This document shows, one piece after another, positions 1,733-54,957 of a stretch of 64,000 bases of DNA (positions are counted from its first letter, which is position 1; each line of letters opens with the position of its first letter). This DNA is from an archaeon (GTDB lineage: Archaea; Nanobdellota; Nanobdellia; Pacearchaeales; GW2011-AR1), in NCBI GenBank assembly GCA_009992215.1, contig JAACWB010000004.1:8006-72005 (forward strand). The letters are read 5' to 3'. Below the pieces are notes generated by a model, which saw only the letters and a program-made list of their open reading frames with translations, was not told the origin of the DNA and did not search any database. Made by a program: the position numbers and the translations under genes.

Positions 1733-3718
1733 TTATTTCCCATAATTCTTTTTTAGAAAATTATTAATGAATGCTGAGTTATCTTTTTTTTCTGAGATTC
1801 CTGTTATTCTAAAAGCATTTAATCCTTCAAGCCCAACATTTTCAACTTTCACTTCGGGAGTTAATCTTAGTTTGAATTTTTCTCCAAGAAGTATTTCTTC
1901 ATTTGACTTATTTGCAATCTTTTTTGTTTCTGTCATTAATGTGCCCATACTCATGAATTTGAAACCAGTTTTATCTTCTTTAGTTACAATTGTTCCAAAA
2001 TTTAAGCTAAGTCCATAATCAATTTTTTGTTTGAATTTTTTATTGTGTTCTTTTAATACTTTTTCAATTGATTTTGTTAAATCTAAAATTGGCATTTCGT
2101 TTTTGAAAGTTTTTGTTCTAACTGGAGGAAGTAAGAAAAATAAATTTCCTCTGTTTTCATAAACTACACCTTTTTTATTTTCAATTAAAGAAATAATTGA
2201 ATTAAGAGTTTCTTTAACTCCCCCAATTCCCGAAGAAACTTCTTCGTAATTTTTTATAAAAATACAACCAATTGGAGAATTTTGTTTTGTTCCAGTAATT
2301 GAAAGAGACAATTCAGCTTTAACTTTTGGGTTACTTAATTTTTCTTTTTCTGGAATTTCTTTTAACTCAAGTGGTTTTTTAGCTTTCTTTCCTCTTTTTC
2401 TTCCGAAGAATGTTTTTTTGTAACCTTTTCTAAAGAAAGTGTAAGAAACAAAACCAAGAATCAGTGCCATGAATGCCCAAGCAATTATTTTTATATAACT
2501 TAAATTCTTTTCAGAAATTTTTTCTAATTTAACTACATTTCCAGTAAGAGAAACTAGACCTTGAAAATCTCCAGCTTGAATATTGTATTCTCCCTTTGGG
2601 GCTGAAATTAAATATTTTTCAGTTTCTCCAACGGGAAGGGAAACTGAAACATTGATTGTTTCATCTCCAATTACTATTGGTACTGTATGATTATAATACA
2701 CATTTCCTTTGTTTTCAAGAATTAAAGTTTTATTTACAATATCTATTGAAATTTCTTCTTTCTCTAAAATATTAAAATCCATCCGATTAATTAATTCTTC
2801 AGAATAAACTGAAACAACCCATTTTCCTGGAGCTTCATTATATTTTATTGGATATTCGAATTGTTCTTCTGTTTTAACTTCTAACTTTTGTAACATTTCT
2901 TCTTTTTCATTTTTTATTGCTACATATGCATTTGAATTTATTTTCTCTCCTGTTTGATCTCTTAACACAATACTTCCTTTAAGTGTGTCACCTGGAAGAA
3001 TCTCGTATTCATCTAAAACAATTTCTAAATTAGTTGGAATTTGTTTTATTACAATGAATGAATTTTTTTCTCCAACATTTGTTAATTCTGCGTATTTGTT
3101 TTGTTCATAAACTTTAATTTTTACATTATGTGTTCCTGCTTTGAAATTATCTGGAAATGGAACTTTAACTAAAAAATTTCCTTCTATAACTTCCCCACTT
3201 ACAAAAATTTCTTTTTCTCCTTCAACACGAATTTCAACAGTCCCATCAACTGCTTTTTCGTTTTCTCTAAATGCAGTTCCATTCATCATAATAATGTTTC
3301 CTGGTTCGTATTGTTCTCCATTCAAGTCAAAATTGATATTTATCAAATTTGAAATTTTAAATTCATCTGAGAGAACTTCTTTGTCTTCTCCAATTTTGTA
3401 TTTAATTGTACAAGTTCCAATTGAATCACCGATGAATTCTTTTACCAAGGGAATTACAATATCTTTTGTTATTTCTGTTTCTGAAAATAAGAACTCTTTG
3501 TAAACTTCTGTTTCTCCATAATCACAAGATAGATAAAAAATTACTAAATCACTTAGTGTTCCAACTGGCGTTATTTTTGCTGTGATTTCAATTTTATCTT
3601 TTAGGTTGTATAAGCTTAATGGTTCCTTTTCTAAAGTCACTCCGGCAGAAACAAATGAGATTAAAAATAATCCTAATATTACAAATATCACAACACCTTT
3701 CTGTTTTCCCTTTATCAT
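1733..3718 (-). CDS. large membrane-anchored extracytoplasmic protein, unknown function
   Basis: 661 aa. N-terminal signal/TM segment, a long beta-rich presumably extracellular region, a second TM near residue 400, and a roughly 230-aa C-terminal cytoplasmic domain of unknown function. Confidence 0.45.
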   Translation of the reverse strand: MIKGKQKGVVIFVILGLFLISFVSAGVTLEKEPLSLYNLKDKIEITAKITPVGTLSDLVIFYLSCDYGETEVYKEFLFSETEITKDIVIPLVKEFIGDSIGTCTIKYKIGEDKEVLSDEFKISNLININFDLNGEQYEPGNIIMMNGTAFRENEKAVDGTVEIRVEGEKEIFVSGEVIEGNFLVKVPFPDNFKAGTHNVKIKVYEQNKYAELTNVGEKNSFIVIKQIPTNLEIVLDEYEILPGDTLKGSIVLRDQTGEKINSNAYVAIKNEKEEMLQKLEVKTEEQFEYPIKYNEAPGKWVVSVYSEELINRMDFNILEKEEISIDIVNKTLILENKGNVYYNHTVPIVIGDETINVSVSLPVGETEKYLISAPKGEYNIQAGDFQGLVSLTGNVVKLEKISEKNLSYIKIIAWAFMALILGFVSYTFFRKGYKKTFFGRKRGKKAKKPLELKEIPEKEKLSNPKVKAELSLSITGTKQNSPIGCIFIKNYEEVSSGIGGVKETLNSIISLIENKKGVVYENRGNLFFLLPPVRTKTFKNEMPILDLTKSIEKVLKEHNKKFKQKIDYGLSLNFGTIVTKEDKTGFKFMSMGTLMTETKKIANKSNEEILLGEKFKLRLTPEVKVENVGLEGLNAFRITGISEKKDNSAFINNFLKKNYGK

Positions 3719-3828: not shown

Positions 3829-4947
3829 ATGGGAAAGAGTGTTGTGAATCCTTACGAAATTAAGGGTGCTGTTAATTATGATAGACTTGTTAAGGAATTT
3901 GGAATAACAAAAATTGATGAGAAATTAATTAAGAGAATTGAAAAATTGGTTGGCGAGGTTCATCCTTTCATTAGGAGAGGTATATTTTTTGCACACAGAG
4001 ATTTAGAAAAAATTTTAGATGCTTACGAAAAAGGGGAAAAATTCTTCTTGTACACTGGAATTGGTCCATCTGGCCCCATACATTTAGGCCACATTCAAAC
4101 ATGGAGGCTTGTAAAATGGTTACAGGACAAGTTTAATGTTGAACTTTGGTTTCAATTTACTGATGATGAAAAATTCTTGTATAAAGACATGAGTTATGAG
4201 GAAATTCAAAAGTGGACAAAAGAAAATATGCTTGACGTTATCGCGCTTGGGCTTGACCCAAAGAAAACACATTTTTTGATTGACACTAAACACGCTGGAA
4301 TAATGTACCCTGAAGCAATTAAAGTTGCGAAGAAAATAACTTTTTCAATGATTAAAGGAGCTTTTGGCTTTACAGACTCAAACAATATTGGAAGTATTTT
4401 TTATACGGCAATGCAAACTGTTCCAGTTTTTTTACCTAATGTTTTGAATAATAAACATGAAAGATGTTTAATTCCATTAGGAGTTGATCAAGAACCTCAC
4501 TTTAGAATTAGTCGGGATGTTATTGAAAAGCTTGGTCACATAAAACCTGCAATAATTCATTCAAAGATGATGATTCCGTTAACGGGAATTGAAGGAAAAA
4601 TGTCTTCAACTGAACCAGACAAGGCAATTTTAATGACGGACAGTCCAAGTGAAATTAAGAAAAAAATAAATAAACACGCATTTAGTGGTGGACAAGACAC
4701 TGTTGAAGAACACCGAAAGAAAGGTGGAAATGTTGAAGTTGATGTTGCTTGTCAATGGTTAAAATATTTTGAGGAAGATGATAAAAAACTTGAGGAAATT
4801 TATTCTAAATATAGGAAAGGTGAACTTCTTAGTGGAGAAGTTAAGAAAATTTTAATTGAGAAAGTTCAAGTCTTTTTGGCAGAGCATCAAAAAAGGCGGG
4901 CTAACGCCGAAAAATTAATTGATAAGTTTGTTTACTCGAAAAAATAA
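3829..4947 (+). CDS. trpS: tryptophanyl-tRNA synthetase (archaeal/eukaryotic type)
   Basis: 372 aa. Class I HIGH-region variant GIGPSGPIHLGH and KMSSTEP (a KMSKS variant). The length fits archaeal TrpRS rather than TyrRS, which is about 310 aa. Confidence 0.8.
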   Translation: MGKSVVNPYEIKGAVNYDRLVKEFGITKIDEKLIKRIEKLVGEVHPFIRRGIFFAHRDLEKILDAYEKGEKFFLYTGIGPSGPIHLGHIQTWRLVKWLQDKFNVELWFQFTDDEKFLYKDMSYEEIQKWTKENMLDVIALGLDPKKTHFLIDTKHAGIMYPEAIKVAKKITFSMIKGAFGFTDSNNIGSIFYTAMQTVPVFLPNVLNNKHERCLIPLGVDQEPHFRISRDVIEKLGHIKPAIIHSKMMIPLTGIEGKMSSTEPDKAILMTDSPSEIKKKINKHAFSGGQDTVEEHRKKGGNVEVDVACQWLKYFEEDDKKLEEIYSKYRKGELLSGEVKKILIEKVQVFLAEHQKRRANAEKLIDKFVYSKK

Positions 4948-8763: not shown

Positions 8764-9774
8764 TTGCAGTATAGTAATATGGAAAAGAGGAGTAAATTTA
8801 CTTTTATTGATTTATTTGCAGGAATTGGAGGTATTCGTTTAGCTTTTGAAAAAGCAGGTGGAAAATGCATCATGAGTTCTGAATGGGATGCTTATGCACA
8901 AAAAACATATTTAGAAAATTTTGGGGAAATTCCTTTGGGAGATATTTCAAAAATTAATGAAAAAGATATCCCAAACCATGACATATTGTGTGGAGGTTTT
9001 CCTTGCCAAGCTTTTTCTATTGCGGGAAAAAGAAAAGGATTTAATGATATCAGAGGCACTTTATTTTTTGAAGTTGCTAGAATAATTAAAGAAAAAAAGC
9101 CGAAGGCAATTTTTTTAGAAAATGTTAAGGGACTAATAAATCATGACAAAGGAAAAACTTTAGCTACAATTCTTGATGTTTTAAGAAATGAATTGGGATA
9201 TTATGTTACAGAGCCTCAAATTATGAATGCAAAAGATTTTGGATTAGCTCAAAATAGGGAAAGAGTTTTTATTGTTGGATTTAGAAAAGATTTGGGAATA
9301 AATTCTTTTTCTTATCCGAAGAAGAAAATTAAACCAGTTTCTTTTGAAGAAGTTATGGAAGAAAAACCAGTTTCTCCGAAATATTATTTGTCTACTGTTT
9401 ACTTAAATACATTAAAGAAACATAAGGATAGACATGTTAAAAAAGGTAATGGGTTTGGGTATCAAATAATTGATATAAAAGATATTGCTAATGCTATCGT
9501 AGTTGGGGGAATGGGGAGAGAAAGAAATTTAATAATTGATAAGAGACAAAAAAATTTAATTCCTATAACAAATATCAAAGGTTCCATAAATAAAAAAGGA
9601 ATTAGGAGAATGACCCCGAGGGAGTGGGCAAGATTACAAGGGTTTCCAGATTCTTTTAAAATTCCTGTTTCTGATGCTCAGGCCTATAAACAATTTGGAA
9701 ATTCTGTTGCAGTTTCAGCCATATATGCTACTGCGAAAGAGATAATTAAACATTTAGATAATAAATTAAAATGA
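8764..9774 (+). CDS. DNA (cytosine-5)-methyltransferase, M.HpaII-like
   Basis: 336 aa. Motif I FTFIDLFAGIGG, motif IV GGFPCQAFSIAGKRKG, motif VI IFLENVKGL, motif X QFGNSVAV. Overall collinear resemblance to the CCGG-specific M.HpaII group, judged from memory of that family. Confidence 0.9.
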   Translation: MQYSNMEKRSKFTFIDLFAGIGGIRLAFEKAGGKCIMSSEWDAYAQKTYLENFGEIPLGDISKINEKDIPNHDILCGGFPCQAFSIAGKRKGFNDIRGTLFFEVARIIKEKKPKAIFLENVKGLINHDKGKTLATILDVLRNELGYYVTEPQIMNAKDFGLAQNRERVFIVGFRKDLGINSFSYPKKKIKPVSFEEVMEEKPVSPKYYLSTVYLNTLKKHKDRHVKKGNGFGYQIIDIKDIANAIVVGGMGRERNLIIDKRQKNLIPITNIKGSINKKGIRRMTPREWARLQGFPDSFKIPVSDAQAYKQFGNSVAVSAIYATAKEIIKHLDNKLK

Positions 9775-23592: not shown

Positions 23593-23665
23593 TAGCGCTA
23601 CCCGGATTCGAACCGGGGTCACGGGATTCAGAGTCCCGTATCCTTGACCGCTAGACTATAGCGCT
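23593..23665 (-). tRNA. tRNA-Gln (anticodon CUG), intronless
   Basis: Minus-strand sequence AGCGCUA ... CGGGA-CUCUGAA-UCCCG ... CCCGG-UUCGAAU-CCGGG-UAGCGCU-A. Canonical cloverleaf with a palindromic acceptor stem. Confidence 0.85.
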
Positions 23666-23705: not shown

Positions 23706-23810
23706 GAATATGGATTCGAACCGAAGTCACGGCGAAAATCTTCTGAAAGTGTAATAAATGAACGAAATGAATTTAGAAATCTTTCACAGAATACGAACAG
23801 GGTAGCGCTA
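23706..23810 (+). repeat. tRNA-3'-end-mimic element copy 1 (T-arm-like segment, conserved hairpin, copy of tRNA-Gln 3' terminus)
   Basis: GGATTCGAACCGAAGTCACGG resembles the tRNA-Gln T-arm/variable region. A conserved hairpin has stem CTGAAAG/CTTTCA and a 31-nt loop. The element ends in GGGTAGCGCTA, identical to the last 11 nt of tRNA-Gln. Confidence 0.5.
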
Positions 23811-24736: not shown

Positions 24737-24900
24737 GCCCCAGTAGTATAGTGGCCAAGTACGCCGCCCTCTCAAGAAAATTAGATTACATAATCTGAGA
24801 AGAGGTGATTCTAATCTTGGTGAAAGAGGTGAATCTAGCGTCTCAACGCAACCATTTTCAGAGTACGGCGGTAACCCGAGTTCAAATCTCGGCTGGGGCG
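24737..24900 (+). tRNA. tRNA-Glu (anticodon CUC) with a roughly 90-nt intron at the canonical 37/38 position
   Basis: Exon 1 is GCCCCAG ... CCGCC-CUCUCAA. The intron spans about 24776-24866. Exon 2 is GGCGG ... CCGAG-UUCAAAU-CUCGG-CUGGGGC-G. Confidence 0.75.
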
Positions 24901-24933: not shown

Positions 24934-25025
24934 CCCGATTCAAATCCGAGCATTTCTGAAAGTGTAATAAATGAACGAAGTGAATTTATATCAGCTTTCA
25001 CGGAATGTGAGTTAGGGCTGTGGCG
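24934..25025 (+). repeat. tRNA-3'-end-mimic element copy 2 (degenerate tRNA-Glu T-arm, conserved hairpin, copy of tRNA-Glu 3' terminus)
   Basis: CCCGATTCAAATCCGAG matches the tRNA-Glu T-arm CCGAGTTCAAATCTCGG. The same hairpin (CTGAAAG-TGTAATAAATGAACGAAGTGAATTTA-...-CTTTCAC) is present. The element ends in GGGCTGTGGCG versus GGCTGGGGCG in the tRNA. Confidence 0.5.
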
Positions 25026-34210: not shown

Positions 34211-34330
34211 TAATTTTTATTCTTTTTTGTCTATATCTAAGAAATAATTTTTTACAATCAGACGATTGCTGCAAAATAATTTCTAAAATCTATCCTAAAA
34301 AATAATTCAAAATTGAAAAATAGAATTAAT

Positions 34331-34366
34331 TTAGATTAGCTAAATTTTTATAAATTCCTGAATTAA
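34331..34366 (+). promoter_or_regulatory. 36-bp promoter-like element, copy 1 (contains the TATA-like TTTATAAA), 8 nt upstream of the ATG of the 34375 gene
   Basis: TTAGATTAGCTAAATTTTTATAAATTCCTGAATTAA. It is identical to the copy at 35015-35050. The TATA-like box lies about 22-29 nt upstream of the start codon, implying a leaderless transcript. Confidence 0.5.
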
Positions 34367-34374
34367 ATAAATGT

Positions 34375-35022
34375 ATGAGTAAATATATTGAAGATTTAAC
34401 AGATGAAGAATTAAAGAAATTAGAAAGAGTTTGTTCTGGAAAAGCTTTAACTCAATATTATTTAGATACAAAAAAAGGAGATTCAAATATTCAATTTCAA
34501 AAATTAATTTGGAAGACGAATTATTATGGAAAAGATTTATTTAAATTTAGAGAAGCTTACAAAAGAGATAATCTATCAATGGAGGAAAATGGATTGAATT
34601 TTGTTTTTACAGGATTAACCTTGGATTATTTAGTTGATTTGACTGAAGATGGAATTGAAAAATGGAAAAAAGAAAATGAAAATAAATTTGAGGTTATAGA
34701 TTACGGAAGAAATAAATATAATTATGCAACGGGAAAATTCAATGTAAAGCCCATTAGTATTGATTTTGAATTAAATGGATTGAAAGTCAATGCAAAGATT
34801 GTAAATTATATTGATGAACTCTATAAATGCCCTTTTTCTATTTTTGAGAATGAAGAATTTATCAAAGGATACAAATTGTATGAATTAACCAATACTAAAA
34901 ATAACAGAAAAATTAAATTTTCAAATATTGTTTCCCACATGATTCAACAACACCATTTTTTTGGAGGGAAAAATTCAGATAACAGATTAGAGCCGAAAGA
35001 ATTTTCTGATTTTTTAGATTAG
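34375..35022 (+). CDS. hypothetical protein
   Basis: 215-aa ORF directly downstream of promoter-repeat copy 1. Confidence 0.4.
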   Translation: MSKYIEDLTDEELKKLERVCSGKALTQYYLDTKKGDSNIQFQKLIWKTNYYGKDLFKFREAYKRDNLSMEENGLNFVFTGLTLDYLVDLTEDGIEKWKKENENKFEVIDYGRNKYNYATGKFNVKPISIDFELNGLKVNAKIVNYIDELYKCPFSIFENEEFIKGYKLYELTNTKNNRKIKFSNIVSHMIQQHHFFGGKNSDNRLEPKEFSDFLD

Positions 35023-46034: not shown

Positions 46035-47798
46035 TTACAAAATTATTTCAAAGTCTCCGTATTCTTTTTTCAAAATCTCAAAGATTTTTGATTTTATTTC
46101 GACTGTTTCTTTATCATGTTGTTCTTGAACGGCAGTTTCTAATTCTTCAAGAGTTGAATCTTCAATTTTATTTGTTATTTTCTTTACTTTACCTGCTTCA
46201 AACAAGAAAGTTTTTTCTCCTGCATTCAAAAGCTCAACGACTTTATCTTTGAATTTGATTGCCATTTTTCCTTTGTTTATTGAAACCATGTCTTTCTTTT
46301 GAACAAATTCATTCAAATCCCTCATTAAAATTTCTGCATCTCTTCTTGCTCTATCAATCTTATGCGAATCTGATTTACCTTTCTTGAATTCTTGTCTTGC
46401 ACTAATCAAATCGTTTAAGATTCTTGAATGTTGCTTTGAAAACTTACCTGTTTTGATGTAATCTTTTTCAAAAGAAAGAACTAATTGTTCTTGGGATTTT
46501 TTACCTATAATAATTTTCATTAAATCCATTACATCTTTGTAAATTTGTTCAATTGTTTTTTCTTGGTATTTTTTTTCGATTTCAATTCTTAATTCTTTTA
46601 ATCGTTTCAAATATTCTTCAGTTCCTTTTAGCAACTTGTCAATTTCAGTTCCAGAGATTTCTTTTATTTTTTCATGTTCATAATCTTTCCATGTTTTTAC
46701 AACTTTTTCAAGGAAGTCAACATATTTCTTTTCAATCATTTTTGTTGCGTAAAATTCTTTTTTGAAATCATTAACTAGTTCTTTTGAAGTTGGTGGTGGA
46801 CATCCATTAAGCATAAGAATTGCTTGTGCCGGAGTTGTTACACCCCAAAAAATGTTTGTAAAAATTTCTGTAAGTAGTGTTCTTTTACTTCTTGGAATTA
46901 CTCCGTCTCCCATAGACATAAACATATCAATTGCTTCTGGACTTGGTTTAAGTTTACCCATTCGTAAAAGTGCTTTCCATGGCATGAATGTTCCTCGGTC
47001 GTAAAGTGGAACTCCATCACGAATGAAAGTGAAGATAACTGGATTTGCGTCTTTAACAGAATCCCAAAAATCAGTTAGTAAATAAATTTGTGGCTCAAGT
47101 TTGTTTTCTACACCGGCAATTTGGCTTGCTTCTGCAATGTATTGATAAATTATTCCTCTAAGTCTTTCTAATAATTCACGTCTTGGCATACGTTTTACAT
47201 CAGTATCATTAATAATTATGAAAACATCAACATCACTAGTTTTGATTGCGTCTCCTCGAACTAAACTTCCACCAACTACATAACTCACAACATATTTCTC
47301 AAATTTTTGAATAACTAATGATTTGTGAATTTCAGCAACACGAAGAGCTCCCAAAATTCCTGTGTCGTGTAGTGGGTAAGACATAGCAATTGCACTTGAC
47401 AAATCAAACTTTTGATCCATTGCAATTTCCCAAATTTCAGCAGGCGTCATTATGTGAAGCCAAACTTTTTCATTTGATTTTTGAATTTCTTTAATTAATT
47501 CTTCTTTTATTTTCCCAGTTTCTTTAATTTTTTCATCTGGAATAATGATTGCTAAATGAACAGAATCTTTACTTTCTTCAGGTGCTTCTTCTTCCTCAAT
47601 CCATTTTGGAATTGATTGTGGTGGCAAAATTCCAAGGGACAAAATATATTTGAATTTTTTAATTGCAAAATCCTTAATTTTTTCTATTTCTTTTTTTGTT
47701 TTTTCAAATTTTTTCTTTTCTTCTTCGGGATTTACTGGAGAATTATTTACAGGATTGTATTTTGGGTTCATTGGTCCTGTTGAATTTTGAATATTCAT
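46035..47798 (-). CDS. large Pol-beta-superfamily nucleotidyltransferase domain protein (paralog of the 39778-40656 protein)
   Basis: 587 aa. Charged N-terminus, NTase motif VVGGSLVRGDAIKTSDVDVFIIIND, a shared downstream domain (ANPVIFTFIRDGVPLYD / KLKPSPEAI), and a long helical C-terminal extension. Confidence 0.45.
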   Translation of the reverse strand: MNIQNSTGPMNPKYNPVNNSPVNPEEEKKKFEKTKKEIEKIKDFAIKKFKYILSLGILPPQSIPKWIEEEEAPEESKDSVHLAIIIPDEKIKETGKIKEELIKEIQKSNEKVWLHIMTPAEIWEIAMDQKFDLSSAIAMSYPLHDTGILGALRVAEIHKSLVIQKFEKYVVSYVVGGSLVRGDAIKTSDVDVFIIINDTDVKRMPRRELLERLRGIIYQYIAEASQIAGVENKLEPQIYLLTDFWDSVKDANPVIFTFIRDGVPLYDRGTFMPWKALLRMGKLKPSPEAIDMFMSMGDGVIPRSKRTLLTEIFTNIFWGVTTPAQAILMLNGCPPPTSKELVNDFKKEFYATKMIEKKYVDFLEKVVKTWKDYEHEKIKEISGTEIDKLLKGTEEYLKRLKELRIEIEKKYQEKTIEQIYKDVMDLMKIIIGKKSQEQLVLSFEKDYIKTGKFSKQHSRILNDLISARQEFKKGKSDSHKIDRARRDAEILMRDLNEFVQKKDMVSINKGKMAIKFKDKVVELLNAGEKTFLFEAGKVKKITNKIEDSTLEELETAVQEQHDKETVEIKSKIFEILKKEYGDFEIIL

Positions 47799-47871: not shown

Positions 47872-47937
47872 AATTGAATGTCAAAGTAATCGCCTGCGCC
47901 AATGGCTTGATTCGATTCAAAAAAGAAATGGTCCCGG
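47872..47937 (-). repeat. 66-bp perfect direct repeat (copy 1 of 2) comprising the tRNA-Val 3' terminus plus 53 bp of 3' flank
   Basis: AATTGAATGTCAAAGTAATCGCCTGCGCCAATGGCTTGATTCGATTCAAAAAAGAAATGGTCCCGG is identical to 48085-48150. Confidence 0.7.
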
Positions 47938-48020
47938 ACAACTTGCACTCCGTGAAATTTCTAAATTCATTTCATTCATTTATTGAAATTTCAGAAGATG
48001 CTCGGGAATCGAACGATTCC
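47929..48020 (-). repeat. tRNA-3'-end-mimic element copy 3 (T-arm-like palindrome, conserved hairpin, copy of tRNA-Val 3' terminus)
   Basis: Read on the minus strand: GGAATCGTTCGATTCC, then CGAGCAT, then the hairpin (CTGAAATTTC-AATAAATGAATGAAATGAATTTAG-AAATTTCAC), then CCGGGACCA. The loop matches copies 1 and 2 at about 90%. A further 19-nt copy of the tRNA-Val 3' end lies at 48029-48048. Confidence 0.5.
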
Positions 48021-48141
48021 TGCAAAATAAAGAAATGGTCCCGGCAGGACTCTACTCTTACCCCGCCATTCTAGCCTTCGGCATAATTGAATGTCAAAGT
48101 AATCGCCTGCGCCAATGGCTTGATTCGATTCAAAAAAGAAA

Positions 48142-48213
48142 TGGTCCCGGCAGGAATCGAACCTGCGCCATCTCGGTGTAAACGAGAGGGTCTACCATTA
48201 GCCTACGAGACCG
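48142..48213 (-). tRNA. tRNA-Val (anticodon UAC)
   Basis: Minus-strand sequence GGTCTCG-UA-...-UCUCG-UUUACAC-CGAGA-...-GCAGG-UUCGAUU-CCUGC-CGGGACC-A. The D-stem is slightly imperfect. This copy also carries repeat copy 2 (48085-48150) at its 3' end. Confidence 0.8.
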
Positions 48214-51108: not shown

Positions 51109-51224
51109 AATTATTTTTATTAATAATTATACTTAAATTTATTGTAATACATGCGCCAGACCGTGTAGCTCTCAACCTTGAAATGTTCTTTAAACTCATT
51201 TTATTCGTTTATTAGAAATTTCAA

Positions 51225-51400
51225 AGTTGTTCGTCGAACCCCCGGGTTCTCACCCCGAAAGAACTATGCGCCGACCGGGGCTCGGTTGGTGGCAAAACCA
51301 CACAACAAGCCAAAACATCGCGAATGTTTTGACTTAACCCGGGCTTCATGCTTCTTGCATGAAATCTATTTTGAATTTGACGGGTGAGAGCACCGAAGAA
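51225..51400 (-). ncRNA. GC-rich structured element immediately downstream of tRNA-Gly, ending in a 20-bp copy of the tRNA-Gly 3' terminus; candidate ncRNA or integration-site remnant
   Basis: Local GC about 50% against about 30% background. Hairpins GTTCG-T-CGAAC, CGGGG-TGAGAA-CCCG and GTGG-CAAAA-CCAC. TATGCGCCGACCGGGGCTCG at 51264-51283 is identical to 51431-51450 inside tRNA-Gly. The two ORFs predicted here are probably artefacts of the GC-rich sequence. Confidence 0.3.
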
Positions 51401-51432: not shown

Positions 51433-51505
51433 ATGCGCCGACCGGGGCTCGAACCCGGGTCACAACCTTGGCAAGGTCGCATTCTACCACTGAACTATCA
51501 GCGCG
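51433..51505 (-). tRNA. tRNA-Gly (anticodon GCC)
   Basis: Minus-strand sequence GCGCUGA-UA-GUUC-AGUGGUA-GAAU-G-CGACC-UUGCCAA-GGUUG-UGAC-CCGGG-UUCGAGC-CCCGG-UCGGCGC-A. Confidence 0.85.
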
Positions 51506-54216: not shown

Positions 54217-54957
54217 ATGGCAAAAGTAAAATATTTGGCAACTGGAGTTTTGGCGCTAGGTTTAGCTTCAAACTTGAATGCACAAGATTCTAAGACAAAT
54301 GGGACAATTATGTATGATTTAGACAAAAATTCTAACGAAGTTGTCTTGAAAAAAAATAAATTAGAAAAGAATTTTTCAAATACAAAATTAAGATTAAATG
54401 CTGGGGCTGGAATATATTTAACGAAGCCTGAAACTTATTTTGTAGAATTAAACCCTCAAATTAATATTGGAAAAGATTTTTGGACTGGAATTTATGCAAA
54501 GGCAGTTACAAAAGCAAATGATTTTAGTGAAGATGTTGAAATTGATAGAACACAAATTATGTCTGATTGGTACTCTGAAACTGAAAGACACACTTCTCAA
54601 TTATTCAAAACTAATAATCCAATTGAAGCGGGAGTAAATCTTTCAAAAGGTTTGGGAAGATTTTTTGAAGTTGGTTTATCTACTGGAATTAGATATCAAA
54701 AAGAATCATTAACAAAACAAATTTCTGGATTTGACAGAACAATTAATGATGGTGTTTTAATCGAAGAAAAACCATTTTATTTGCCTTCAACAAAAACTAA
54801 TTCGGATTCATTTAGTCCAATTATTTCAACTGAATTAAAATTTTATCCTCAAAAAAATATTTTTTTGTCGGGTGAAGCAAGTTACAATTTAAGAGATAAG
54901 CGTTCAGAAATTAAAGCTAAAATCGGAATTACACTTGGAGGTAAAAAGAGAAAATGA
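54217..54957 (+). CDS. secreted beta-rich protein
   Basis: 246 aa. Signal peptide and alternating amphipathic beta-strand-like composition. Confidence 0.4.
   Translation: MAKVKYLATGVLALGLASNLNAQDSKTNGTIMYDLDKNSNEVVLKKNKLEKNFSNTKLRLNAGAGIYLTKPETYFVELNPQINIGKDFWTGIYAKAVTKANDFSEDVEIDRTQIMSDWYSETERHTSQLFKTNNPIEAGVNLSKGLGRFFEVGLSTGIRYQKESLTKQISGFDRTINDGVLIEEKPFYLPSTKTNSDSFSPIISTELKFYPQKNIFLSGEASYNLRDKRSEIKAKIGITLGGKKRK

Follow-up and report, generated by a model that had tools for sequence, protein, structure and literature searches.

Small hairpin-bearing insertions within partial copies of tRNA gene ends at a polymorphic tRNA-Val locus of a Pacearchaeales archaeon

A tRNA-targeting integrase is classically recognised by direct repeats that start in the T-arm of a tRNA gene and extend past its end. 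A repeat resembling this signature follows the tRNA-Val(TAC) gene of the archaeal contig JAACWB010000004.1, within the 64,000-nt stretch that was analysed here as a whole (the window). A first-pass annotation, made from the letters alone, had attributed it to serial integration and excision at this tRNA. The question raised by the locus is which kind of process has placed the repeats, and the hairpin sequence found between them, behind an intact gene: an integrase, another type of mobile element, a host RNA, an intron or the assembly itself.

On the minus strand, two small non-coding insertions are stacked 3' of tRNA-Val, each carrying its own terminal copy of the tRNA 3' end (Table 1). The tRNA gene has no encoded CCA; TTTCTTTTTT lies directly 3' of it and a T6 run, immediately after the gene, separates it from the element. 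The gene reported by the first-pass annotation is there, although ARAGORN places its boundary at 48212 instead of 48213. The perfect 66-bp direct repeat that had been described is also present, its two copies (100% identical, spacing 213) forming the longest exact repeat in the window. However, the division of the repeat into 12 nt of tRNA and 53 nt of flank was inexact, since it consists of 9 nt of tRNA and 57 nt of flank, and a degenerate T-arm fragment of tRNA-Val (GGCGCAGGCGATTAC) lies within this flank. The 'B'-type insertion starts at the left edge of the 147-bp segment that is absent from the empty allele described below, and its initial motif recurs in L085, an unrelated metagenome contig, where it lies 3' of a tRNA-Ile. 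The 19-nt copy of the tRNA 3' end that follows had been correctly recognised except for its end, which is 48030 and not 48029; taken with 48068-48049, it makes up a degenerate copy of about positions 44-73 of tRNA-Val, so that 48068-48036 reproduces the 3' third of the tRNA. The hairpin element had been located at 48020-47929 and does end with CCGGGACCA, but its extent is about 48023-47929. The third copy of the tRNA 3' end directly abuts the 3' end of the core and opens the distal 66-bp repeat. Three copies of this end had been claimed, and CCGGGACCATTTCTT occurs three times (47923-47937, 48030-48044 and 48136-48150), a number of matches reached in none of 100 shuffles.

Table 1. Coordinates (positions in the window) of the features of the tRNA-Val locus and of the other hairpin-bearing regions.
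Feature	Position	Strand	Remarks
tRNA-Val(TAC), intact	48142-48212	-	ARAGORN; Rfam tRNA, 62.1 bits
66-bp direct repeat, proximal copy	48085-48150	-	tRNA-Val positions 65-73 (CCGGGACCA) plus 57 nt of flank
First small insertion, 'B' type	48049-48084	-	Starts with motif ATGCCGAAGGCTAGAA (48084-48069)
Second copy of tRNA-Val 3' end, 19 nt (CCTGCCGGGACCATTTCTT)	48048-48030	-	CCTGCCGGGACCA plus trailer TTTCTT
Hairpin element, 'A' type, subfamily 2	47938-48023	-	Covariance-model match 47933-48016, 70.8 bits
Inverted copy of tRNA-Val 56-65 in hairpin element (GCAGGAATCG)	48023-48014	-	
Direct copy of tRNA-Val 54-62 in hairpin element (TTCGATTCC)	48013-48005	-	
Conserved core hairpin of tRNA-Val element	48004-47938	-	
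Third copy of tRNA-Val 3' end, positions 65-73 (CCGGGACCA)	47929-47937	-	
66-bp direct repeat, distal copy	47872-47937	-	
213-bp unit (147 unique bp plus one repeat copy)	47872-48084 (equivalently 47938-48150)	-	
Hairpin element beside tRNA-Gln(CTG) (23593-23665, -), divergent from the gene	23707-23810	+	
Hairpin element 3' of intron-containing tRNA-Glu(CTC) (24737-24900)	24935-25025	+	
Insertion region downstream of tRNA-Gly(GCC) (51434-51504)	51152-51285	-	

The 213-bp unit is not present in all assemblies. The occupied form, that is, the arrangement of the window, is found in the metagenome contigs L024, L025/L027, L035 and L036, whereas L029, L030 and L031 contain an empty allele that is exactly 213 bp shorter and has otherwise identical flanks. 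Both alleles differ by exactly one unit, the difference that characterises repeat-mediated duplication or deletion. The recent rearrangement that the first-pass annotation had supposed is thus borne out, and shown to be still polymorphic, by independent assemblies with or without these 213 bp, a polymorphism of the kind which that annotation had named as a check. Similarly, an equivalent 219-bp unit is present once (L008) or twice in tandem (L059) in contigs of a relative. The empty allele could be the ancestral state or a deletion, and for the loss or gain of the unit homologous recombination between the repeats is at least as good an explanation as an integrase. Unequal recombination between direct repeats accounts for the [66][147][66] and [66] forms, as well as for the one or two units of L008 and L059, but it covers neither the origin of the first core-bearing duplication nor its recurrence at tRNA ends. 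With respect to other loci, the tRNA-Glu element is present in all covering contigs and no polymorphism was seen, while the tRNA-Gly locus is covered by a single contig with the same allele as the window. In a related species, tRNA-Val lacks the hairpin element and is followed instead by an unrelated 128-bp insert with a 22-bp repeat.

A covariance model detects four hairpin elements in the window (23721-23806 and 24935-25020 on the plus strand, 47933-48016 and 51160-51245 on the minus strand), and not three as had been counted. They adjoin four of the five tRNA genes, tRNA-Tyr being the one without an element, and all of them end with a copy of the 3' acceptor strand of the neighbouring tRNA. 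For instance, the end of the tRNA-Glu element, GGCTGtGGCG (25016-25025), is the tRNA-Glu 3' end with one mismatch. The tRNA-Gln element starts antisense to about positions 40-62 of tRNA-Gln and ends with the sense tRNA-Gln 3' end, GGGTAGCGCTA (23800-23810). Downstream of tRNA-Gly, a 19-nt copy of the tRNA 3' end (51285-51267) is followed by a subfamily 1 hairpin element (model match 51160-51245), which ends with GGTCtGGCGCA (51162-51152). The tRNA-Glu and tRNA-Tyr genes of this lineage contain long introns.

The core hairpin is strongly supported as a conserved structure: 96.5% of the cells are paired, all the slid-register controls remain at or below 54%, and compensatory change is found in 13 of the 22 pairs. 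A U·G wobble, which works on one strand only, is present in 21 of the 29 sequences. The apical motif, which in the tRNA-Val element reads UAAAU-GA-AU-GAA-AU-GA-AUUUA, spans 23 nt in the family and is near-invariant from Pacearchaeota to Thermoplasmatota.

Known RNA families were searched in Rfam 15, with the gathering threshold for the whole window and E <= 10 for three element loci. Only tRNAs pass the gathering threshold in the window, and other matches are far below it (E >= 0.001). Readings of the core as a C/D-box, H/ACA or hammerhead RNA were rejected by eye, in agreement with Rfam, because the boxes or cores are incomplete and a continuous duplex lies between the two tandem-GA motifs. 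A K-turn or K-loop for L7Ae was discarded as well, since the apical motif is composed of symmetric tandem G·A pairs, a 2-bp stem and a triloop, without a 3-nt bulge; so was a primer-binding site, the reverse strand not being complementary to a CCA-ended tRNA. The bulge-helix-bulge motif found at archaeal intron boundaries consists of two 3-nt bulges with a 4-bp helix between them. By eye, the bulges of the core are of 1 nt, on opposite strands, and 4 bp apart inside the hairpin. For subfamily 1, a relaxed bulge-helix-bulge that uses the T-loop is conceivable.

The same hairpin core of about 70 nt is found at no fewer than 11 tRNA species in contigs of Pacearchaeota, Woesearchaeota and Nanoarchaeota, and a core variant in inverted orientation in Thermoplasmatota. 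The family amounts to thirty distinct strong matches from 22 sources. The strong copies are mostly co-oriented with a tRNA, about 28 of 39 lying 15-350 nt 3' of one on the same strand, and their hosts are the tRNAs for Thr, Ile, Glu, Gln, Gly, Tyr, Val, Asn, Leu (two) and Asp. The orientation of the core relative to the tRNA varies, the gene end may be copied in either direct or inverted orientation, and two genomes have the core within a copy of the end of a protein gene instead of a tRNA. The copies of Thermoplasmatota and L087 are located within a complete tRNA-like (antisense) sequence that has a stem resembling an acceptor and, just before a T-run, an A resembling a discriminator base. 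Vertical inheritance of the cores by tRNA type was rejected because they cluster partly by genome and not by tRNA identity, although the junction register does track tRNA type. Within a genome, core copies are just 76-79% identical, so there has been no recent burst. The element was not described in any text retrieved by a full-text literature search, the nearest reports being PMC3293823 and bioRxiv 10.1101/2022.07.05.498093, the latter of which cites the 44-bp repeats that flank PYG1, an instance of the integrase signature. The hairpin family is widespread beside tRNA genes and, apparently, previously undescribed.

The core is always placed within a partial copy of the end of the neighbouring gene. 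Its 3' junction is fixed relative to the T-stem, at tRNA position 64/65 in the subfamily of tRNA-Val and at 62 or 53/54 in others, and the core interrupts an otherwise continuous local T-arm sequence at 53/54, 58/62 or 62/64. The duplicated segment opens at the junction position, includes the tRNA end and stops at a variable point further downstream, giving exact repeats of 10, 11, 13, 15, 19, 22, 28, 48, 66 and 137 bp that often reach beyond the tRNA end and take in a short T-rich trailer. Tails resemble the local tRNA (scores of 8-21 in 18 of the 19 elements) far more closely than other tRNAs (mean of about 5), and the left flanks copy rare local T-loop variants, such as TTCGATT in Val and TTAAAAT in Ile. 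At the left junctions, the adjacent tRNA segment is often present as an inverted copy. Terminal inverted repeats are absent from the alignments of full elements; the inverted repeats at the left end copy the local tRNA and not the right end. In every resolved case an intact, high-scoring tRNA lies upstream, whereas the distal 3'-end copies are mismatched (G to T in Glu, an additional T in Gly, and also in L070, L080, L046, L006 and L012). No tRNA gene was found whose sole copy contains the core. Across genomes, each of the tRNA types compared keeps one junction register (53/54 in three Thr cases, 64 in three Glu and two Ile cases), which suggests old, vertically inherited insertions.

Enzymes that could mobilise these elements were searched with Pfam. 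The 30 largest ORFs of the window include no integrase, transposase or reverse transcriptase, and Phage_integrase was matched by just one of the 100 ORFs that flank elements at 20 loci. Recombinases, transposases and reverse transcriptases are not enriched in the 36 window ORFs and 100 element-surrounding ORFs taken together. A viral or plasmid origin was also rejected, since a scan of IMG/VR with the apical motif only rendered four weak matches (<=28 bits), devoid of tRNAs.

The explanation that we favour, with confidence a little above even, is that structured mini-insertions, trans-mobilised or once mobile, have been stacked at tRNA ends that they duplicate, and that recombination between the duplicated segments later removed or multiplied the unit. 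The cores would be present or former non-autonomous elements moved in trans; no enzyme is encoded beside them. The structure recognised would be the hairpin folded on one strand, either as RNA or as single-stranded DNA. Each insertion would copy part of its target, so that an intact tRNA gene is left upstream and a decaying partial copy downstream, and further insertions would stack on the same tRNA. Homologous recombination or slippage between duplicated segments could then delete or amplify the unit, the empty allele being one outcome.

Several observations go against this explanation. No mobilising enzyme was found in the window or in the element-flanking ORFs. The copies are diverged and their structure is kept by compensatory changes, a pattern for which selection on each copy, and hence a host function, accounts at least as well as selfish mobility does. 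The register is the same per tRNA type, and neither terminal inverted repeats nor a target duplication of fixed length are present. Moreover, the core is inside the duplicated copy and not beside it, which is not predicted by simple cut-and-fill target duplication. It is possible, although we hold it as a tentative proposal that is rather doubtful, that the hairpin is the hallmark of a new class of archaeal element common to DPANN and Thermoplasmatota: a module of structured RNA or single-stranded DNA, which installs itself in fresh partial copies of gene ends, direct or inverted and chiefly of the tRNA T-arm and acceptor, by a mechanism other than integrase, transposase or classical intron homing. 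A candidate mechanism for such a class is repair synthesis at tRNA genes, either transcript-templated or by fold-back.

We consider it unlikely that the hairpin serves the host as a non-coding RNA module with a possible role in processing, termination or protein binding. Such a module would be expressed with or near tRNA genes and maintained locus by locus through selection, and the partial tRNA copies would be by-products of its installation or a tRNA-like processing context. The near-invariance of the apical motif, the compensatory changes accompanied by a wobble that only one strand allows, and the existence in one small genome of paralogues that are diverged yet structurally intact all point in this direction. 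The same can be said of the co-orientation of most copies with the tRNA, the tRNA-like surroundings of the Thermoplasmatota and L087 copies, and the constancy of register per tRNA type. However, the natural empty allele indicates that the element is dispensable at tRNA-Val, and no element exists at tRNA-Tyr or at the tRNA-Val of the related species. The T6 run between tRNA-Val and the element, the decay of the tails, the inconstant orientation and the copies at protein-gene ends are also at odds with a host RNA.

The model of the first-pass annotation, in which viruses or plasmids with a tyrosine integrase repeatedly integrate at and excise from the tRNA-Val 3' end and leave att duplications and remnants, is improbable. 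Part of it stands: the nested 3'-end copies do reflect insertions stacked at tRNA-Val, and this stacking resembles accretion at att sites. The repeats running from the T-arm past the tRNA end, the presence/absence polymorphism and the unrelated insert at the tRNA-Val of the related species would also suit an integrase. However, the analysis found nothing that points to a tyrosine-integrase att system. An integrase is missing from the 30 largest window ORFs, the single match among the element-flanking ORFs represents no enrichment, and IMG/VR viral contigs were searched without finding the core. The inserts are a mere 82-150 bp, the repeat length is highly variable, and inverted arrangements and insertions at protein-gene ends occur. 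An integrase element family uses one attB, and thus one tRNA, as its attP carries the matching sequence. The same core at 11 or more tRNA species, with flanks that match locally on both sides, is therefore not an attP-carrying element.

Quite improbable too is that the core is an archaeal intron-like RNA insertion in the T-arm, or a derivative of it, and that these loci are intermediates of intron gain or loss in which a partial intron-bearing copy stays behind an intron-free gene through processed-copy recombination or RNA-templated repair. The interruption of the T-arm at fixed positions, the long introns of this lineage and the T-rich trailer within the repeat, as expected of a copy of a primary transcript, are in line with it, and the inverted tRNA copy at left junctions resembles fold-back synthesis; there is also a precedent for population heterogeneity tied to tRNA gene disruption (PMC3293823). 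However, no tRNA gene has the core in its only copy, no reverse transcriptase was found in the ORFs searched, the antisense and protein-gene cases require extra assumptions, and the core is still conserved after its supposed loss of function. Finally, that the 66-bp repeat and the intervening block are an assembly artefact can practically be dismissed: several short-read contigs do end within the repeat, but at least five assemblies, independent and made from different samples, share the identical arrangement (one contig being of 93.8 kb), the empty form comes from three others, one of them built at k=141 with k-mers long enough to cross the 66-bp repeat, and the same type of architecture is repeated in other species.

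The origin of archaeal tRNA fragments, non-canonical introns and split tRNA genes is still debated. If the hairpin elements are mobile, they could be a source of all three, and they would represent a new mode of using tRNA genes as landing pads, in which tiny, gene-less insertions spare the tRNA, leave partial copies and stack. If they are host RNAs, a widely conserved non-coding RNA that is outside Rfam would be tied to most tRNA genes in some of the smallest archaeal genomes. In practical terms, partial tRNA copies and repeats fragment short-read assemblies, and both can be mis-annotated as tRNA genes or prophage att sites. The tRNA-Val presence/absence allele is usable as a population marker for this lineage.

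Among known systems, the att duplications left at tRNA genes by tyrosine-integrase islands, proviruses and plasmids share with this locus a repeat from the T-arm to beyond the 3' end (here, tRNA-Val 65-73 or 60-73 plus trailer), an intact gene on one side with a decaying partial copy on the other, and the capacity of events to stack. However, the inserts described here are gene-less, of 82-150 bp and without integrase, one core is shared by at least 11 tRNA species, the repeats range from 10 to 137 bp, the core is inside the partial copy, and inverted arrangements and protein-gene targets are also found. Prokaryotic MITEs are likewise non-coding, structured, multi-copy sequences of about 100 bp with duplicated target flanks, presumably moved in trans, but the hairpin elements differ from them in the lack of terminal inverted repeats and of a fixed-length target duplication, in a strong preference for tRNA ends, and in within-genome copies that are diverged but structurally conserved; to our knowledge, they have no partner transposase. 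IS200/IS605 mini-elements with a TnpB omega RNA do not duplicate their target, whereas these elements do; in addition, no transposase-like Pfam match lies near the latter, and their tails, which would be the putative guides, decay. Non-canonical introns and split tRNAs of Archaea, together with the model of tRNA gene disruption (Sugahara et al. 2012, PMC3293823), have in common with the present case a conserved RNA-like insertion at fixed T-arm positions, tRNA fragments beside complete genes and heterogeneity in a natural population. Here, no recombinase-bearing 1.8-kb element takes part. While an archaeal bulge-helix-bulge intron lies in the only functional copy of a gene, the hairpin core does not: the functional tRNA gene is uninterrupted and the insertion resides in a redundant partial copy.

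The tRNA-Val locus carries the longest exact repeat within the window, a perfect 66-bp direct repeat (47872-47937 and 48085-48150). The first-pass annotation read this repeat as a very recent duplication or an att duplication, and the nested tRNA-Val 3' ends beside it as a sign of serial integration and excision at the tRNA. Its coordinates for the locus are accurate to within one base when the sequence is re-read. The 15-mer CCGGGACCATTTCTT occurs three times at the locus, a number of matches reached in none of 100 shuffles. Two additional fragments of the gene are also present: a degenerate copy of approximately positions 44-73, ending at 48036, and, within the 66-bp repeat, a fragment of the T-arm, GGCGCAGGCGATTAC. 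The synteny of the nucleotidyltransferase gene directly downstream, tRNA-Val and a DEAD-box helicase is also found in a related species. Elsewhere in the window, two 60-nt copies (88% identity, 683 bp apart) cover, in two neighbouring genes, the TATA-like box and the region around the start codon, suggesting a duplicated promoter and 5' end.

Features of the window, with the tRNA-Val locus given in its own reading direction
Feature	Position	Strand	Basis or remark	Element end
tRNA-Val(TAC)	48212-48142	-	ARAGORN, Rfam tRNA	
T-rich trailer plus 51 more bases	directly 3' of tRNA-Val	-	sequence	
Block opening with ATGCCGAAGGCTAGAA	from 48084	-	sequence	
Second tRNA-Val 3'-end copy, CCTGCCGGGACCA + TTTCTT	48048-48030	-	sequence	
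Hairpin element at tRNA-Val	48023-47938	-	sequence	CCGGGACCA
Third tRNA-Val 3'-end copy, CCGGGACCA	47937-47929	-	then identical trailer and 51 bases	
Hairpin copy beside tRNA-Gln	23721-23806	+	covariance model	GGGTAGCGCTA
Hairpin copy beside tRNA-Glu	24935-25020	+	covariance model	GGCTGtGGCG
Hairpin copy beside tRNA-Val	47933-48016	-	covariance model	
Hairpin copy beside tRNA-Gly	51160-51245	-	covariance model	GGTCtGGCGCA
tRNA-Glu(CTC)	24737-24900	+	91-nt intron	
tRNA-Tyr(GTA)	62670-62811	+	67-nt intron	
Nucleotidyltransferase gene	46035-47798	-	587-aa protein, NTP_transf_2 the sole domain	
HpaII-type restriction-modification pair, complete	8779-10841	+	C-5 cytosine methylase 3.5e-107; HpaII endonuclease 1.1e-125	
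60-nt copies	34330-34389 and 35013-35072			
Gene encoding Ig-like domains	54954-56681	+	three diverged internal repeats, 279-bp period (55542, 55821, 56100)	

The hairpin element is not confined to tRNA-Val. The window has four instances of its apical motif, AATAAAYGAAYRAARTGARTTTA, where 0.07 would be expected, and a covariance model built from 12 copies matches exactly these four. Intron-aware ARAGORN finds five tRNA genes in the window (Gln, Glu, Val, Gly and Tyr); the first four adjoin a hairpin element, and a search beside tRNA-Tyr found none. The intron-bearing tRNA-Glu and tRNA-Tyr are detected only in this way, being missed by the default tRNA scan and at the Rfam gathering score. At its end, each element repeats the 3' acceptor strand and discriminator of the neighbouring tRNA. 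The tRNA-Gly and tRNA-Val loci share a two-tier layout, the order at Gly being tRNA, first insert, 19-nt 3'-end copy, hairpin element and degenerate 3'-end copy.

The core, about 70 nt, is a long hairpin. Across 29 distinct sequences, pairing holds in 96.5% of cells and 13 of the 22 pairs show two-sided changes, with all slid-register controls at or below 54%. One U·G wobble persists in 21 of these sequences and reads U-A in the remaining 8. Since wobble pairs function on one strand only, the fold is a property of a single strand (RNA or single-stranded DNA). The apex has the form UAAAU-GA-A[C/U]-RAA-[G/A]U-GA-AUUUA, in which an internal C:G / U:A pair covaries, and a second tandem-GA motif closes the base. 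No Rfam family matches the core. The apical motif also appears on one metagenome contig (Ga0247611_10708423, 141-163; GUAAUAAAC-GA-AC-GAA-GU-GA-GUUUAUUAC, model score 29.8 bits) in a ~95-nt insertion at the helix 44 tip of a 16S rRNA gene of bacterial type, with the spacer tRNA-Ala downstream. This could be chance, or the apex could be a general RNA module.

The right junction is fixed in position relative to the core. In subfamily 2 (Val, Glu, Gln, Tyr, Ile) ...GAGUUA is joined to tRNA position 64/65, in subfamily 1 (Gly, Asn, Asp, Leu and one Gln) ...GAGCA is joined to position 62, and in the Thr type the junction lies at 53/54. Scored against the local tRNA, the tails of 18 of the 19 elements reach 8-21, compared with a mean of about 5 when other tRNAs are used. 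The left flank is local too: rare variants of the T-loop recur in it (TTCGATT at Val, TTAAAAT at an Ile, TTCAAAT at Glu), and an inverted copy of the matching tRNA segment often comes before it. Therefore, the core lies inside a partial copy of the gene end and not merely beside it. The repeat frequently continues beyond the tRNA end, and the length of this overrun varies (1-9 nt at simple loci, 57 nt at tRNA-Val, 128 nt on L008, a contig of another species), so the duplication was made in DNA. Mismatches lie in the distal copy in at least 7 of 19 cases, the upstream tRNA being intact.

Several loci depart from this arrangement. On contig L087 the core splits a full-length antisense copy of tRNA-Gly, and the elements of Thermoplasmatota and contig L091 are convergent with the tRNA 3' end and have antisense tRNA-like ends. 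In two different genomes the copy that surrounds the core derives from the 3' coding end of a HerA/FtsK-like ATPase gene (L078 7960-8900 and L055 ~3400-3600; ATGGCACGG-core-GGAGAAGCTCC), L078 having three tandem units of ~300 bp each with differing apical loops. Five contigs of Candidatus Saliniplasma (Thermoplasmatota; L004, L009, L019, L020, L021) carry a variant family of ~100 nt, GGGCUCGUCAG...hairpin with identical apex...CUAACUGCCCA plus a T-run, which resembles an antisense tRNA with the hairpin in place of its middle. It is convergent with Val or Ala tRNA genes, in tandem copies in L019, and shorter relatives without the apex are also present. Other insert families keep the general layout of the core elements. 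L008 and L091 have a subfamily-1-like scaffold with a different apex. Behind tRNA-Val of a related species (L109, whose helicase is 78% identical) lie a 128-bp insert of unrelated sequence and a 22-bp repeat, CGATTCCTGCTGGGTCCATATT (1960-2100), and a degenerate inverted remnant of the apical motif lies directly 3' of tRNA-Gly (4170-4260). The 16-nt ATGCCGAAGGCTAGAA (hairpin GCC-GAA-GGC) of the first tRNA-Val insert (48069-48084) matches exactly an insert behind tRNA-Ile on an unrelated contig (L085 458-473), which suggests a second conserved insert family.

When one genome per GTDB species was scanned for the apical motif, genuine elements turned up in Pacearchaeota, Woesearchaeota, Nanoarchaeota and unclassified archaeal MAGs, besides the Saliniplasma variant. 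Metagenomes added ~26 further strong matches, and nothing convincing was found among IMG/VR viral contigs. About 28 of 39 strong copies lie 15-350 nt downstream of a same-strand tRNA gene (Thr, Ile, Glu, Gln, Gly, Tyr, Val, Asn, Asp and two Leu). The window organism itself is a DPANN archaeon near Pacearchaeota; it encodes the archaea-specific ThrRS editing domain, and its thermosome is 100% identical to that of an "archaeon" MAG and 75% to that of Pacearchaeota.

No integrase, transposase or reverse transcriptase was found among the 33 window ORFs scanned with Pfam (all those above 237 aa included), and only one of 100 ORFs flanking elements at 20 loci encodes an integrase-family protein. Core clustering does not follow tRNA identity. 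For instance, the Val, Glu and Gln cores of the window are mutual nearest relatives (76-79% identity), and a Gln and a Leu core from different contigs are 94% identical. This pattern indicates that cores have spread, or been homogenised, independently of their flanks. The register of the junction, by contrast, tracks tRNA type across genomes, as old insertions would. The evidence thus speaks for mobility and for selection on the hairpin alike.

Contigs encoding exactly the two proteins that flank tRNA-Val were aligned. The arrangement of the window is also found in L024 (93.8 kb), L025/L027, L035 and L036, whereas L029, L030 and L031 have one 66-bp copy and are exactly 213 bp shorter; the flanks of occupied and empty alleles are 100% identical. 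One empty contig is from a k=141 assembly, so that k-mers bridge the whole repeat, and several contigs terminate inside the repeat, as expected where both alleles coexist. An assembly artefact can in practice be ruled out. The empty allele, which may be ancestral or the product of a deletion, keeps a tRNA-like fragment in its flank, which indicates older events at the site. With A the core-bearing insertion and B the first small one, L008 reads tRNA-Gln-(B-A)-B-partial, with a 137-bp perfect repeat, and contig L059 has two B-A units with ends identical to those of L008. Together with the Val alleles, these cases show that the number of units rises and falls; the simplest route would be unequal homologous recombination, or slippage, between duplicated segments.

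The reading ranked highest is a family of structured, non-autonomous insertions at tRNA gene ends. Each insertion would duplicate part of the gene end, successive insertions would stack at one tRNA, and units would then be lost or amplified through their own repeats. A host RNA function of the hairpin is kept as an alternative that is compatible with such insertion. Classical integrase remnants are kept as well; the att duplications and tRNA fragments of integrative elements are a near phenomenon, but the tRNA-Val locus lacks some of their defining features. The same holds for the third alternative kept, an intron-derived origin, with respect to archaeal non-canonical introns and the tRNA disruption model. 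Standard mechanisms do not explain why the core lies within a partial copy that matches the local gene, why fold-back copies stand at the left junction, why the right junction is fixed while the left varies, or why elements occur on either strand of the tRNA gene. A hypothetical repair synthesis at tRNA genes, transcript-templated or by fold-back, would explain these four features.

Among other known systems, MITEs are also near, but some of their defining features are absent from the tRNA-Val locus; those of repeat-mediated tandem duplication are present. No description of the hairpin family was found in the literature searched or in Rfam. The family belongs among small non-autonomous insertions at tRNA genes, a known kind, and there is a substantial chance that its mechanism is new.
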